Assembly: GCA_045123975.1 (NCBI GenBank)
Contig: JBGVKV010000071.1
Location: 15 to 64,014, forward strand
Direction of reading: 5' to 3'
Length of the DNA stretch: 64,000 bases
DNA from: Eubacteriales bacterium
GTDB lineage: Bacteria > Bacillota > Clostridia > Oscillospirales > CAG-272
In this document: piece after piece, positions 4,867 to 51,683 of the stretch
How positions within the stretch are numbered: the first letter of the stretch is position 1
How the letters are laid out: each line of letters starts with the position of its first letter
The notes under the pieces: generated by a model
What the model was told of the DNA's origin: nothing
Databases searched by the model: none
Seen by the model: the letters and a program-made list of their open reading frames with translations, nothing else
Made by a program: the position numbers and the translations under genes

Positions 4867-5751
4867 ATGGCAAAGACTGAATTGGGCATCGCCCTGAACA
4901 CCGCTTTCGGTACAAAAATCGAAGAAAGAATCGCAAACGTGCTGGACGCGGGCTTTACACACGTCAGCATGGTCTGGGGAGAGAATGACGACGAGCATGA
5001 AAAATTCTACCGCCAGGCAAAATATATAAAAGAGAACAAAGTGCCCGTATACTCCGTACACGCACCTCTCTATCCCACCGATTACACCGATCGGGGCGTG
5101 GGCGTTATGTGGGAGGATTCCCCCGCGGCAAAGACCTATCGGGAATTTTTGTGCCGCTGTGCCCGGGAGATCGCCGAGCACACCGACTCGCCTTATATGG
5201 TACTGCACCCCACATTCCATCCTACCATGCCCGCCCCCACCGAGACCGGCGTGGAGAATTTCCGCTACGTGGCGGAATACTGCCGCACCGTGGGCATCAA
5301 GGTGGCTTTGGAGACCATGGAAGTCCCCAGCCATCTGGCCATTCTTCTGAAGGAATTGCCCCCGGATATCGCCGGCGTCTGCTGGGACAGCGGTCACAAT
5401 CTGGCCTACACCCCGGAGGTGGACTGGCCGAGAAAAGCAAAAGGCCGTCTGTTCTGCACCCATCTCCACGACAACGACGGAAAGACCATGGGCCCCATCC
5501 CCAACACCCGCTGTGACACCCATTTTCTGCCCTTCGACGGCGTGCGGGATTGGGAGGACGCTATGGTAAGTCTGGCCGAGAGCGGCTACCGCGGCCCTCT
5601 CACTCTGGAAGTAAAGAAGGGACGGGACGTATGCCGTCAGCTTCCCATCTACGCCGAATGGGGCGAAGCGCGCTTCATGAAGGAAGCCTACGCCCGTGCG
5701 GATCGGCTCCGCACCATTTTTGAGGAGGCATGCCGCCGTCTGGATGGCTGA
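4867..5751 (+). CDS. sugar phosphate isomerase/epimerase (xylose-isomerase-like TIM barrel)
   Basis: Start is the ATG at 4867 with a GGAGG RBS. Metal-ligand-like motifs are spaced as in the AP_endonuc_2 fold: SVHAP, LHPT, LETM, WDSGHN, HLHDNDG, LEV. Confidence 0.6.
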   Translation: MAKTELGIALNTAFGTKIEERIANVLDAGFTHVSMVWGENDDEHEKFYRQAKYIKENKVPVYSVHAPLYPTDYTDRGVGVMWEDSPAAKTYREFLCRCAREIAEHTDSPYMVLHPTFHPTMPAPTETGVENFRYVAEYCRTVGIKVALETMEVPSHLAILLKELPPDIAGVCWDSGHNLAYTPEVDWPRKAKGRLFCTHLHDNDGKTMGPIPNTRCDTHFLPFDGVRDWEDAMVSLAESGYRGPLTLEVKKGRDVCRQLPIYAEWGEARFMKEAYARADRLRTIFEEACRRLDG

Positions 5752-5771: not shown

Positions 5772-7622
5772 ATGCTGGAAAACATCCACTCCCCCGCGGA
5801 TATCAAGCATCTGACTCCCGATCAGATCGCCGCCTTGTGCGGGGAAATCCGGGAGGATATACTTACCGCCGTTTCAAAAAACGGCGGTCATCTCTCGTCC
5901 AATCTGGGCATTGTGGAAACCACAGTGGCCCTCCACCGGGTCTTTGACACACCCCGGGACGCCATCGTTTTCGACGTGGGACACCAGTGCTACGCCCACA
6001 AGATCTTGACGGGCCGTCGGGCGGGATTTTCGAATCTGCGGAAGCTGGGCGGACTCTCCGGCTTTCCCCGGAGGGAGGAAAGCGAGTACGATCCCTTCTC
6101 CGCCGGTCATTCGGGCCCTGCCCTCTCCTGTGCCATCGGTATGGCGGAGGCCAACCGGGCAGCGGGACGTGAGGACTGGGTGATTGCCGTCATCGGCGAC
6201 GCATCCTTCGGGTGCGGTATGGTCTACGAGGCACTGCAGAACTGCGCCAAGCAGGGGCTCCGGCTCCTGATCGTCCTCAACGACAACGAGATGTCCATCT
6301 CCAAAAACGTGGGAGCTCTGTCCGATTATTTCACGAAGATCCGCCTGAGCCGGGGCTATTTTGCCTTCAAGCACACGGTGCATAAGATCTGCGCCCGCGT
6401 ACCCCTGTTGGGTCGGGGCGTGATCCGCTGTGCCATCGGGATAAAGGAATTTATCAAGCGGATTCTGAACCGAAAAAACATCTTTGAAAATCTGGGTCTG
6501 GAATATCTGGGCCCCGTGGACGGAAAGCGGGAGGAGGTTCTGGAATACGTATTCCGGGAGGCCATCCGGTGCGACCGCCCCTGCATCGTCCACGTGATCA
6601 CACAAAAAGGACGGGGTTATGCCCGGGCCGAGGAGCATCCGGACCGGTATCACGCTGTATCCCCCTTCGATCCGGCTGCGGGAATCCCCGACGCACCGCC
6701 GAAAATGACCTTTTCCCGCGCCTTCGGTCAGTCCATGTGCCGATTGGCCGGGGAAAACGATACCCTCTGCGCCATCACCGCCGCCATGCGGGACGGCACG
6801 GGGCTTGCGGAATTTGCCGACGCGTTCCCCCGTCGGTTCTACGACGTGGGCATCGCCGAGGAGCACGCCGTCAGCTTTGCCGCCGGTCTTGCCCGGGGTG
6901 GGCAGCAACCTGTTGTGGCGCTGTATTCCACCTTCGCCCAGAGAACCTTCGATCAGGTGCTCCACGACTGCGCTTTGCAGAAGCTGCCTTTGGTATTGGC
7001 TTTGGACCGTGCGGGCATCGTGCCCGGCGACGGCTCCACCCACCAGGGACTCTTTGACGTGGGACTTTTCACACCCGTTCCCGGTGTGGAAATATTCGCC
7101 CCCGAATCCTATGAGGAATTGGACGCTGTGCTGGAAAACGCGATCCGGTCGGATCGCATAAGCGTGATCCGCTATCCCCGGGGCAGCGAGACCGAATACG
7201 ACCGCAGTGTGTGGCAGGAGATTGCCCCCGGCATCACCGCCGCCGATTTCCCGGGAAATACGGCAGGAAAGCCCCTTACGATCCTCACCTACGGCAGGAT
7301 CGCCTACGAAGCCCTGCGTGCAGCGGCGGAAATATTTCTCACCTGTCCCGTGCGGGTGATCCGCCTGAGTAAGATCTATCCTCTCGACAAAGATGCCATT
7401 CTCACCGCTCTGGGCGGTGCGGAAAGATGCCTGATCGTGGAGGAAGGCATGCGCCGGGGCGGCATCGGCGAGATGGTTGCCGCCATCCTCGCGGAAGCGG
7501 GAGCGCCGGCTCGTGTGAAGATCCTGGCGGTATCGGATTTCGTATCCCACGGGGATACGAAATCCCTGACAGCCGCCCTCTCTTTGGATGCGGCGGGCAT
7601 TCTTCGGGAATCCGAATTTTGA
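5772..7622 (+). CDS. dxs: 1-deoxy-D-xylulose-5-phosphate synthase
   Basis: Start is the ATG at 5772 (GGAGGA RBS), 616 aa. Contains GGHLSSNLGIVE, the GDASFGCGMVYEALN TPP motif and the transketolase-like IAEEHAV. Confidence 0.9.
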   Translation: MLENIHSPADIKHLTPDQIAALCGEIREDILTAVSKNGGHLSSNLGIVETTVALHRVFDTPRDAIVFDVGHQCYAHKILTGRRAGFSNLRKLGGLSGFPRREESEYDPFSAGHSGPALSCAIGMAEANRAAGREDWVIAVIGDASFGCGMVYEALQNCAKQGLRLLIVLNDNEMSISKNVGALSDYFTKIRLSRGYFAFKHTVHKICARVPLLGRGVIRCAIGIKEFIKRILNRKNIFENLGLEYLGPVDGKREEVLEYVFREAIRCDRPCIVHVITQKGRGYARAEEHPDRYHAVSPFDPAAGIPDAPPKMTFSRAFGQSMCRLAGENDTLCAITAAMRDGTGLAEFADAFPRRFYDVGIAEEHAVSFAAGLARGGQQPVVALYSTFAQRTFDQVLHDCALQKLPLVLALDRAGIVPGDGSTHQGLFDVGLFTPVPGVEIFAPESYEELDAVLENAIRSDRISVIRYPRGSETEYDRSVWQEIAPGITAADFPGNTAGKPLTILTYGRIAYEALRAAAEIFLTCPVRVIRLSKIYPLDKDAILTALGGAERCLIVEEGMRRGGIGEMVAAILAEAGAPARVKILAVSDFVSHGDTKSLTAALSLDAAGILRESEF

Positions 7623-25758: not shown

Positions 25759-25806
25759 GTAGGGGCGTTCATCGAACGCCCGCGGGCGACCAATGGTCGC
25801 CCCTAC
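25759..25806. repeat. GTAG-type REP doublet (head-to-head)
   Basis: GTAGGGGCGTTCATCGAACGCCC (25759-25781, +) and GGGCGACCAATGGTCGCCCCTAC (25784-25806, -). Confidence 0.85.
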
Positions 25807-25880: not shown

Positions 25881-26378
25881 TTAATTCAATGAAATGCCCT
25901 CTGCATTGATTCGAATTGAGTAAAACAAATTAAAAACTTCCTCTTTAGGATTTAACGTGCGATACATATTTATCAATCTTCTTTTTCCAACTCTTCGATC
26001 AAGTATGGCGAAAATACGAACAATCATGTTTTCACTGTTCATACTTTCCTCAATGCTTTGATTGTCAAATTCTTCAAAAGCTTGATAGAAGGTATGCGGA
26101 CTGAATATGCCTAATTTTAGTGCTGTATCGTCCATATATGCGTAATTTTCTGTCATTCGCTTTTCGTATGTTTCATTATGTGGAAATAAGTGAGCTTTGC
26201 TCCAGTTGTTCCAGTAGCAACCGCTGATCAATTCTTTGCCATCTAACCGTATGGATGCTCTGCCGTGATGGTCAGGACTTTTGCTGTAAGAAGTGCAATA
26301 ATACTGAATATGTCCTCGTAATGATTCTGCAAGATACTCGTTTTCAAGTTTATGCCTAATACCGCTCCAAGTTGACAT
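25881..26378 (-). CDS. hypothetical protein (AT-rich cassette cargo)
   Basis: Start is the ATG at 26378 (GGAGG 6 nt upstream), 165 aa. GC is far below the flanks. The tail ...IFAILDRRVGKRRLINMY recalls a widespread uncharacterised family, but that is memory only. Confidence 0.6.
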   Translation of the reverse strand: MSTWSGIRHKLENEYLAESLRGHIQYYCTSYSKSPDHHGRASIRLDGKELISGCYWNNWSKAHLFPHNETYEKRMTENYAYMDDTALKLGIFSPHTFYQAFEEFDNQSIEESMNSENMIVRIFAILDRRVGKRRLINMYRTLNPKEEVFNLFYSIRINAEGISLN

Positions 26379-26395
26379 AGTCATCCTCCTGTTCT

Positions 26396-26473: not shown

Positions 26474-26591
26474 CTCCCTTGTGTAAAGGGAGCTGTCACC
26501 GCAGGTGACTGAGGGATTGTGTTTCGTTGCTCTTTGTTTTTACAATCCCTCCGCCTCACATTCGTTCGGCACCTCCCTTTACACAAGGGAG
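26474..26591. repeat. hairpin-rich 118-bp insert bounded by exact 19-bp inverted repeats
   Basis: CTCCCTTGTGTAAAGGGAG (26474-26492) is the exact reverse complement of CTCCCTTTACACAAGGGAG (26573-26591). Internal hairpins are GTCACC-GCA-GGTGAC and GAGGGATTGT..ACAATCCCTC. The insert is absent from the homologous leader at 55293-55307. Confidence 0.7.
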
Positions 26592-26658: not shown

Positions 26659-26727
26659 GTAGGGGCGACCATTGGTCGCCCGTTTTGGTTTTGCGGTTAT
26701 TTGCGGGCGATCAATGATCGCCCCTAC
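26659..26727. repeat. GTAG-type REP doublet (head-to-head, 23-nt spacer)
   Basis: GTAGGGGCGACCATTGGTCGCCC (26659-26681, +) and GGGCGATCAATGATCGCCCCTAC (26705-26727, -). Confidence 0.85.
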
Positions 26728-26782: not shown

Positions 26783-27283
26783 TCATTCTTCGCTGTACAA
26801 CTCGTCGTATTGCCAGCGAACAGGATTTTCACAGATATATCTTACGTGTTTTTCGTAATCCTCCCGATCACGGATAACGTGATCGTAAAAGGATTTTTGC
26901 CAAATGGATTTGCCAATTTGCTTTGAAACGTATCCTTTCAGTTGTTGTACAACCCGTGACACGGTAGGGGCGACCATTGGTCGCCCGTCCTCATCGGCAC
27001 AAACTCTCAACAACAGGTGTATGTGATTGGGCATAATCACATACCAATCCGCCATGAATGCAGGGTATGTAGATGAAATGTTTTGGATTGCCTTGCTTAC
27101 GATTTCACCGCCAGAGGATAATTCTATATTTTCCGGGCGATCAATGATCGCCCCTACATTTTCCCAAAAATAATTTCGCCTGTCCTCGGTACATATTGTA
27201 ATAAAATACGCTCCACAGGAGGAGTAATCATACGTATCTAAACGATTCTTTTTTCTTTTTGGAAATTCGTTTTCCTTTTTCAC
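26783..27283 (-). CDS. REP-associated tyrosine transposase (RAYT; IS200/IS605 Y1 family)
   Basis: GTG start (AAGAGG RBS), 166 aa. HUH motif MPNHIHLLL and the C-terminal WQKSFYDHVIRD...Y..NP Tyr region. AT-rich except for two embedded GC-rich palindromes. Confidence 0.75.
   Translation of the reverse strand: MKKENEFPKRKKNRLDTYDYSSCGAYFITICTEDRRNYFWENVGAIIDRPENIELSSGGEIVSKAIQNISSTYPAFMADWYVIMPNHIHLLLRVCADEDGRPMVAPTVSRVVQQLKGYVSKQIGKSIWQKSFYDHVIRDREDYEKHVRYICENPVRWQYDELYSEE
26964..26986 (+). repeat. REP copy inside the RAYT ORF
   Basis: GTAGGGGCGACCATTGGTCGCCC, 23/23 identical to 26659-26681. Read on the gene strand it encodes DGRPMVAPT. Confidence 0.85.
27135..27157 (-). repeat. REP copy inside the RAYT ORF
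   Basis: GGGCGATCAATGATCGCCCCTAC, 23/23 identical to 26705-26727. On the gene strand GTA GGG GCG ATC ATT GAT CGC CCG encodes VGAIIDRP. Confidence 0.85.
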
Positions 27284-32445: not shown

Positions 32446-32699
32446 GTATGGCGGGGGCTTGCTCCCGCCGCAACGTGAGGTTTTTGATTTACTTAGCGGA
32501 CGACCGCGCGAGTTCGCGAAACGAACTCGAGTCGCCCCTACCGGGAATGCGACTTCGGCGCATCGAGTTGGTGAACCAACTCGGAACGTCGCCCATAGCC
32601 TTCCCCAGCGGGGGAAGGTGGTATCCGCAAGGATACCGGATGAGGTGTTTCGTGCGGCTTTGGATTCCAAAAAACGGGAGGAGCAAGCCCCTCCCCTAC
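32446..32699. repeat. cluster of six palindromic units (BIME-like) between convergent spoIIE and cinA
   Basis: Units at 32446-32469 (+), 32497-32541 (-), 32549-32598 (-), 32599-32618, 32620-32637 and 32675-32699 (-). The outer two belong to the GTA(G/T)GG-GGGGCTTGCTCC family. Confidence 0.8.
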
Positions 32700-33402: not shown

Positions 33403-33537
33403 GTAGGGGAGGGGCTTGCTCCTCCCGCTATTATGGATTACTGAAATTTCGCACCGGAAGTCTATACCCACGCTGTATCTTCCGCCGTTCCGTTTGTATG
33501 AACCATTTACCTCGGGAGGAGCAAGCCCCTCCCCTAC
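33403..33537. repeat. REPIN-like inverted REP pair in the traX leader
   Basis: GTAGGGGAGGGGCTTGCTCCTCCCG (33403-33427, +) and its exact reverse complement (33513-33537), separated by 85 nt. Confidence 0.85.
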
Positions 33538-51658: not shown

Positions 51659-51683
51659 GTAGGGGAGGGGCTTGCTCCTCCCG
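51659..51683 (+). repeat. solo REP of the GTAGGGGAGGGGCTTGCTCCTCCCG family
   Basis: 25/25 identical to 33403-33427. Confidence 0.85.

Follow-up and report, generated by a model that had tools for sequence, protein, structure and literature searches.

Copies of two neighbouring REPs inside the reading frame of a clostridial RAYT gene, and their conservation as DNA among related genes

The stretch analysed here, called the window throughout, comprises 64,000 nt of contig JBGVKV010000071.1 from an Eubacteriales bacterium (Clostridia, Oscillospirales, CAG-272). It contains an open reading frame (ORF) of 166 aa for a REP-associated tyrosine transposase (RAYT, or TnpA-REP) of gut Clostridia, with repetitive extragenic palindromes (REPs) both beside the gene and within it (Table 1). 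The assignment to the RAYTs, made in a preliminary description from the letters alone, is borne out by sequence and structure matches to the Escherichia coli TnpA-REP structure 4ER8 and by the invariance of the HUH and tyrosine residues. With phmmer, 4ER8 was the best sequence match in the PDB (E=2e-7), and a Foldseek search with the AlphaFold2 (AF2) model of the protein (predicted local distance difference test score, pLDDT, 79) returned 4er8_A as the top PDB match (TM 0.62, E 2e-7), ahead of IS200/IS605 transposases. A protein search retrieved 5670 homologues. The scores against the family profile hidden Markov models (HMMs) fell just under their cutoffs, 79.1 bits for NCBIfam NF047646 (REP_Tyr_transpos; cutoff 80) and 20.8 for Pfam Y1_Tnp (PF01797; cutoff 23), probably because of two inserted loops. 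The practical consequence is that the insertions probably put these RAYT genes just below curated HMM thresholds, and that the repetitive peptides they create can mislead annotation.

Residues H87, H89 and Y149 are invariant in 30 aligned homologues, and all align with the corresponding motifs of 4ER8; the counterpart of Y149 lies in the DYIYINP motif of that structure, which we take to hold the catalytic tyrosine (Y115 by residue count). This alignment corrects the earlier description in pointing to Y149 and not to the tyrosine of WQKSFYDH, whose position is occupied by H, Y or F in homologues. Past the NP of the Y motif, the protein has 12 more residues. The ORF is intact, and dN/dS values of 0.11–0.29 among RAYT genes indicate purifying selection. 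The GC content of the gene is 41.9%, or 39.6% when the REPs are left out, against 55.6% for the window. No second RAYT was found in the 64-kb window.

The two REPs inside the gene lie in frame and are each identical, at 23/23 positions, to one half of the REP dimer found downstream of the gene. Site 1 has its GTAG on the coding strand and encodes V43–P50 (VGAIIDRP), while site 2 has it on the template strand, the coding strand giving G100–T107 (GRPMVAPT). The sites are thus inverted, with GTAG outward, 148 nt between them and the HUH motif inside, forming a unit of 194 nt. The exact in-frame copies, their arrangement as an inverted pair around the HUH region and their appearance as GC-rich islands in an AT-rich gene had all been pointed out before, and all three descriptions stand. 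On the coding strand, the downstream dimer has the same order as the gene, variant B forward and variant A reverse, the two variants being one compensatory stem pair apart (C..G versus T..A). No REP match occurred in 100 dinucleotide-preserving shuffles, so that no copy is expected by chance; a three-mismatch match on the opposite strand of the near-palindromic site 2 (26968–26990, −) is not a separate copy. The spacer of the downstream dimer showed no convincing homology to the gene interior or the gene flanks.

In the AF2 model, both sites are predicted surface loops. Site 1 occupies the β1–αB loop, between β1 (25–32) and a long helix (57–72), where pLDDT is low; site 2 joins the HUH strand β3 (87–94) to the DNA-binding helix αC (108–123) and coincides with a 6-aa gap in the alignment to E. 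coli TnpA-REP. Folding predicted for the single-stranded DNA pairs site 1 with site 2 (ΔG ~ −42 kcal/mol, z −4.9).

Table 1. RAYT gene, REPs and further features of the window (positions counted from its first letter)
Feature	Position	Strand	Basis or arrangement	Remark
RAYT ORF	26783–27283	−		166 aa
HUH motif H87-I-H89, codons CAC ATA CAC	27017–27025	−	sequence	
Predicted catalytic Tyr Y149 codon (HVRYICENP)	26837–26839	−	alignment to 4ER8 DYIYINP motif	
Site 1, REP variant B GTAGGGGCGATCATTGATCGCCC	27135–27157	−	exact match	intragenic
Site 2, REP variant A GTAGGGGCGACCATTGGTCGCCC	26964–26986	+	exact match	intragenic
REP variant A GTAGGGGCGACCATTGGTCGCCC	26659–26681	+	exact	extragenic
REP variant B GTAGGGGCGATCATTGATCGCCC	26705–26727	−	exact	extragenic
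REP variant A GTAGGGGCGACCATTGGTCGCCC	25784–25806	−	exact	extragenic
REP variant C, 3 mismatches	25759–25781	+	pattern search	
Extragenic (downstream) REP dimer	26659–26727		A(+), 23-nt spacer, B(−)	55 nt past RAYT stop codon
Second REP dimer	25759–25806		C(+), 2-nt spacer, A(−)	~1 kb from RAYT
SF0329-family ORF (PF25753)	25881–26384	−		167 aa
Perfect 19-nt inverted repeat CTCCCTTGTGTAAAGGGAG	26474–26591			arms 80 nt apart
Second REP family GTAGGGGAGGGGCTTGCTCCTCCC	32676–32699	−	exact	GTAG-tagged
Second REP family GTAGGGGAGGGGCTTGCTCCTCCC	33403–33426	+	exact	GTAG-tagged
Second REP family GTAGGGGAGGGGCTTGCTCCTCCC	33514–33537	−	exact	GTAG-tagged
Second REP family GTAGGGGAGGGGCTTGCTCCTCCC	51659–51682	+	exact	GTAG-tagged
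Single hairpin of another type	32541	−		GTAG-tagged
Single hairpin of another type	35461	−		GTAG-tagged
Single hairpin of another type	35670	−		GTAG-tagged
Single hairpin of another type	37043	−		GTAG-tagged

The window gene was compared with its counterparts at 80 fetched genomic loci (L001–L080), giving a set of 81 genes with 42–93% aa identity. The loci come mostly from Oscillospiraceae and otherwise from other Clostridia, and include the isolates Gemmiger formicilis and Fonticella tunisiensis and a Sporanaerobacter chromosome. GTAG-tagged hairpins, GTAG outward, were present at both sites in 68 of the 81 genes (84%), and divergent paralogues at three loci (36–41% identity) carried REP pairs of their own. 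Both octapeptides are kept in almost all of the 120 closest protein clusters (64–98% identity), and the variants that occur there are exactly the hairpin-keeping ones: VGAIIDRP, VGATIGRP, VGATSGRP and VGASIARP at site 1, and GRPMVAPT, GRPLVAPT and GRSMIAPT at site 2. The heterotypic state, B at site 1 and A at site 2, is stable in about 60 of these 120 clusters. The stem triplets vary by genome (among them ACC/GGT, ATC/GAT, AGC/GCT, TGC/GCA, CGC/GCG, GAT/ATC, AAC/GTT, CCC/GGG and GCC/GGC), other stem types in relatives include the 26-nt GTAGGGGGCGACGTCCTCGACGCCCC and GTAGGGGAGGGG...CCCCTCCC, and the peptide pairs track the stems (VGASIARP/GRAMLAPT, VGADIIRP/GRIISAPT, VGANIVRP/GRTMFAPT and VGGDVLDAP/GASRTSPPT). 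Several genes lack the REP at site 1 or site 2; in these, the loop has drifted and the ORF is intact, so the loop peptides are dispensable.

The internal pair was absent from ten distant RAYTs (at most 35% identity) of Spirosoma, Leptolinea, Fulvitalea, Kovacikia, Gloeocapsa, E. coli, a Chloroflexota bacterium, Pseudomonas aeruginosa, Chromobacterium and Bernardetia, which represent Bacteroidota, Chloroflexota, Cyanobacteria and Proteobacteria; the hairpins visible there sit just outside the gene. A RAYT copy of Monoglobus (Clostridia) has the pair. The pair is thus not a universal RAYT feature, and the 81-gene comparison likewise rejects a strain-specific insertion. What the aligned genes show is an intragenic REP arrangement inherited across a clade centred on Clostridia. 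The earlier suggestion of an in-frame REPIN insertion is not supported in the form given, the insertion being neither recent nor confined to a strain, given both sites in 68 of 81 genes down to 42% identity and in the 36–41% paralogues. Its companion suggestion, that insertions are tolerated, agrees with the intact ORF and the dN/dS range, which also reject, with the invariant catalytic residues, the possibility of a pseudogene. In the same comparison, RAYT genes were found to lie about 12 GC points under their flanks on average (0.37 versus 0.49, REPs excluded), being below them in 80 of the 81 loci, yet their GC content correlates with that of the host (r = 0.75).

Several patterns indicate what is being conserved at the two sites. 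Where a residue is identical in two genes, the same codon is used at rates of 0.94 for V43, 0.94 for G44 and 0.90 for A45, and at site 2 of 0.86 for A105 and 0.85 for P106, against 0.42 over the remainder of the gene. The rate is only 0.37 at T107, a codon with its third base just beyond the REP. The codon 5' of site 2 specifies 11 different amino acids and yet ends in C in 65 of 73 genes; this C complements the G that follows the REP in 87–92% of intragenic and extragenic copies. Between the window gene and its homologue at L002, dS is ~1.2, yet the REPs are identical at 23/23 and 22/23 positions. The stem pairs 10–18, 11–17 and 12–16 each occur as four Watson–Crick types with almost no mispairs; at either site, the sole recurrent non-canonical pair reads G·T on the strand that bears GTAG, and never A·C. 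Forward REPs are read in frame 0 in 70 cases and in frame 1 in five; frame 2 is never used, since TAG there would stop translation. The frame-1 copies encode a different peptide, RRGELRSP in L035, L045 and L051, with a further frame-1 peptide in L069. At the level of sequence comparison, these data demonstrate conservation of the DNA rather than of the peptide. The earlier description had named as a refuting case that homologues encode the same peptides with unrelated nucleotides; the opposite was found, in that homologues use the same REP nucleotides and the peptide shifts with the stem. Chance, or a coincidental conservation of peptides, is rejected by the shuffles, the synonymous-site statistics, the frame-1 copies and the C-ending codon.

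These patterns also bear on the idea that the hairpins act in mRNA, on its stability or translation, or that protein function keeps the octapeptides constant, the palindromes being a by-product. In E. coli, REPs influence translation and the decay of mRNA (cited in PMC6006769), and the 120 closest homologues show almost no variation in VGAxxxRP and GRxxxAPT. However, synonymous positions are fixed, the same DNA read in frame 1 yields another peptide, peptides change wholesale with the stem, and genes that have lost the REP at a site keep a drifted loop. The location of the G·T wobble on the GTAG strand, which at site 2 is the template strand, speaks for a DNA element with an orientation and against a hairpin in mRNA, as the site 2 G·T would become an A·C mismatch in mRNA; this strand asymmetry disfavours an mRNA-hairpin function. 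The frame-shifted copies and the strand asymmetry have already largely refuted explanations of this type, which we consider extremely improbable.

The two intragenic REPs resemble each other within a genome far more than between genomes: comparing site 1 with site 2 in reverse complement gives a mean of 1.29 mismatches within a genome and 5.43 between genomes, with 22 within-genome pairs identical and 23 differing by a single mismatch. When the intragenic REPs of each locus were used to search its surroundings (at most one mismatch, ±6 kb), 38 extragenic copies were detected in 22 of 71 loci, against 0.7 with the REPs of other genomes. The extragenic copies often lie directly beside the gene, upstream in + orientation and downstream in − orientation. 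Thus, sites 1 and 2 show every sign of evolving in concert, both with each other and with nearby extragenic REPs. A metagenome scan with the exact 23-mer covered 80 loci and 87 matches, and what it yielded holds among the matches listed. Of these exact copies, 83 of 87 lie outside any RAYT gene, and the density of GTAG hairpins in the 80 loci is 0.61 per kb. Most of these hairpins form GTAG-outward dimers with spacers of 20–60 nt (mode 56–57), which often mix two stem variants, variant A being predominant. Neither dispersed copies of the 194-nt unit nor products of its deletion turned up in these loci.

A match of this kind, genome by genome, between intragenic and nearby extragenic REPs could be expected if the gene-borne REPs were master copies seeding the dispersed family, with enzyme and REP always travelling together. 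The adjacent dimer of the window, in the B-forward, A-reverse order of the gene, fits with this too, and so does a gene compositionally unlike its host in 80 of 81 loci. Even so, the matching order in a single dimer could be chance, and the extragenic copies carry no gene-derived flanks or spacer. The 194-nt unit is not seen dispersed in the metagenome loci listed, common extragenic dimers combine variants not found in the gene (for example AGC + ACC, with a 56–57-nt spacer), and distant RAYTs with abundant REPs have none inside the gene. Seeding from the gene is, in our estimate, very unlikely.

In several relatives, the intragenic copies also behave as REPs do. REPs are duplicated or in tandem at a site in L025, L053 and L079, the L053 paralogue having three tandem copies. 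Among 150 representatives of 50%-identity clusters, many contain long REP-peptide insertions exactly at the two loops; the loop of P0171 contains GRLIIAPT four times, and whole REP dimers are present in P0156, P0219 and P0229. In Sporanaerobacter (L060, NZ_CP181252.1), two 5'-truncated RAYT copies (166–528 and 5011–5367) accompany the full gene (5998–6480). The homology of both to the full gene starts at AA|GTAG of site 1, which points to a rearrangement breakpoint at an intragenic REP, and the two have in common 20 nt of a different upstream sequence. L025 contains an internally shortened partial RAYT copy bounded by REPs.

REPs inside RAYT genes were reported in 2018 as the unique feature of tnpA-REP subclass 2.4, equivalent to Bertels group 4, whose own genes contain REP insertions (Quentin, Siguier, Chandler, Fichant 2018, BMC Genomics 19:475, PMC6006769). 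There, the insertions keep the reading frame, lie 'generally' between HuH and Y, and were judged peripheral, with probably little effect on activity; the subclass motifs are NH[IFV]H, WQ and YIxNNP, with no tail domain in Table 1 of that study. Subclass 2.4 is probably the best fit for the window RAYT, in view of its NHIH, WQ, YICENP, missing tail and REPs with three G–C foot pairs, an assignment made by motifs and features. For the Y motif, the window RAYT has YICENP and its relatives have YIxENP or YIxNNP, against the published consensus YIxNNP. As in the subclass, the GT[AG]G-tagged REPs have three G–C pairs at the stem foot and flank the gene, and in-frame REPs of variable length and repetitive content lie between the HuH strand and αC. 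Site 2 matches the REP encoding RGDRPVAPT in position, orientation, frame (...GCC CCT AC) and stem (GGGGCGACC/GGTCGCCCC), and two classical members (L212 and L213) carry a double-foot REP, GTAGGGGCGACCGGCCGGTCGCCCCTAC, with the stem and frame of the window's site 2. Sharing position, stem and frame with the classical members, site 2 represents the known hallmark of the subclass.

The classical members examined, the 120 closest relatives of the Leptolinea protein (30% identity to the window RAYT), encode RGDRPVAPT, VGAHGRAPL, VGATGRSPL and arrays, only after the HUH strand; none of these 120 has a site 1 REP. In contrast with their double-foot REPs or arrays at one post-HUH site, the clade described here has a second fixed site, in the β1–αB loop, and single-foot REPs, with one foot on each side of the HUH core in inverted orientation. 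The text of PMC6006769 mentions neither this additional site nor the divided inverted pair, and neither the covariation at the DNA level nor the concerted evolution, all of which appear undescribed; the window locus is a well-documented new example of REPs inside RAYT genes, with extra detail.

Other systems share part of these characteristics. The E. coli REPtron (Ton-Hoang 2012; Messing 2012, 4ER8; Corneloup 2021) has the same fold, catalytic residues, GTAG-tagged hairpin and REPs beside the gene, but its rayT (~26% identity to the window protein) has no in-gene REP, its REPs are bulged, and the enzyme has a C-terminal extension of ~45 aa with an autoinhibitory tail. REPINs and their RAYTs (Bertels and Rainey 2011) likewise combine two inverted GTAG-outward REPs, predicted to pair with each other in single-stranded DNA, and a single-copy RAYT with a dispersed REP population. 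However, the spacer of a REPIN consists of tens of non-coding bases, whereas here it is 148 nt of essential coding sequence, and a REPIN would be expected in many dispersed whole-unit copies, which the 194-nt unit does not show in the 80 metagenome loci listed. Intragenic REPs in unrelated genes (Di Nocera et al. 2013, PMC3733652) and Rickettsia palindromic elements are also in-frame palindromes tolerated in loops or linkers. They differ in being mostly lineage-specific and absent from orthologues, whereas here the gene that hosts the repeats encodes the REP enzyme, and both sites are retained throughout a deep clade.

The explanation we favour, to which we give a probability of about 0.6, is that these are genuine REPs occupying two permissive loops in the gene of their own enzyme, inherited clade-wide, conserved as DNA and handled like other REPs. 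The GTAG-outward copies make up an inverted pair like that of a REPIN, with the HUH core encoded in the 148-nt 'spacer', and the REP machinery would treat them as it treats any REP. The resulting events would include duplication, the addition of further REPs or REP dimers next to one already present, and breakpoints at GTAG, and uniformity could be maintained through REP turnover or through template-switch or gene conversion between the inverted copies. All that selection on the protein would then require is an uninterrupted frame and a loop in which any sequence is tolerated. Several points weigh against this explanation. The stable B/A state fits purifying selection on DNA better than frequent overwriting from an A-dominated population; copies or deletion products of the 194-nt unit are not seen outside RAYT genes in the 80 metagenome loci listed; only about half of the loci have an extragenic copy within ±6 kb; and the subclass 2.4 assignment has the feature-based footing given above.

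The first of these points belongs equally to a different explanation, in which selection maintains the REPs within the gene as cis-regulatory sites. Hairpins extruded from the gene would be bound by the RAYT that it encodes, or cut by it and resealed, which would curb the expression or activity of the RAYT; the strand read would be the non-template one at site 1 and the template one at site 2. DNA-level conservation that outlives synonymous saturation, a fixed GTAG-outward orientation, the retention of both sites in 84% of genes and a heterotypic B/A state stable across a clade are all in keeping with it. The G·T wobble lies at both sites on the GTAG-bearing strand, which is the strand that TnpA-REP recognises (PMC8266576). 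In addition, the C-terminal tail autoinhibits E. coli TnpA-REP (PMC3479197), whereas the window RAYT ends soon past the Y motif; the lack of this tail in the clade makes autoregulation plausible, and the sites could replace tail control. Against it, several genes without site 1 or site 2 keep intact ORFs, classical subclass 2.4 genes have the post-HUH site only, and the wide variation in REP number within the loops looks more like passive accretion than a tuned operator. We regard cis-regulation as rather unlikely, less so than the seeding model. The stable B/A state leans to selection; variable arrays and occasional losses lean to passive tolerance. A broader form of the idea, in which a REPIN-like pair has the RAYT catalytic core as its cargo and is preserved by selection because it functions in cis, be it in autoregulation, in reversible self-inactivation or in the seeding of new REPs, seems to us unlikely, somewhat more so than cis-regulation as such.

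Under this broader form, one stretch of nucleotides would double as the substrate hairpin and as the coding sequence of a loop beside the DNA-binding helix, and enzyme and substrate would be physically coupled in evolution. The RAYT/REP system is a leading example of a domesticated or long-lived transposase coexisting with a population of tiny repeats, and it raises the question of how the two stay matched. The window locus and its 80 relatives present repeat copies held in the frame of the enzyme itself and in step with dispersed copies, and the 'harmless loop insertions' of the literature could be either neutral passengers or cis elements.

Between the two REP dimers of the window lies an ORF of the SF0329 family, which the dimers bracket. 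Its GC content is low (30–40%), and given that the RAYT is also low in GC, the two genes form an AT-rich islet beside thrS. The perfect 19-nt inverted repeat, single-copy in the window, sits between the SF0329-family gene and the downstream REP dimer. In the relatives, both classical subclass 2.4 RAYTs (L212 3001–3753 and L213 3001–3561) are located inside type I restriction-modification operons of the order hsdM-hsdS-RAYT-...-hsdR, and the Monoglobus RAYT copy (L086 2001–2474) lies between two DNA methyltransferase genes.

The window also contains four exact copies of a second GTAG-tagged REP family, GTAGGGGAGGGGCTTGCTCCTCCC, with no matching RAYT in its 64 kb. This family has a G·T wobble on the GTAG strand and resembles the in-gene REPs of L054, L066 and L073. 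Finally, four single GTAG-tagged hairpins are of other types, one of which, GTAGGGATTGGCGTCCTCGACGGTCC, is two mismatches from the in-gene REP of the L053 paralogue; such single hairpins suggest further REP families and RAYT paralogues elsewhere in the genome.

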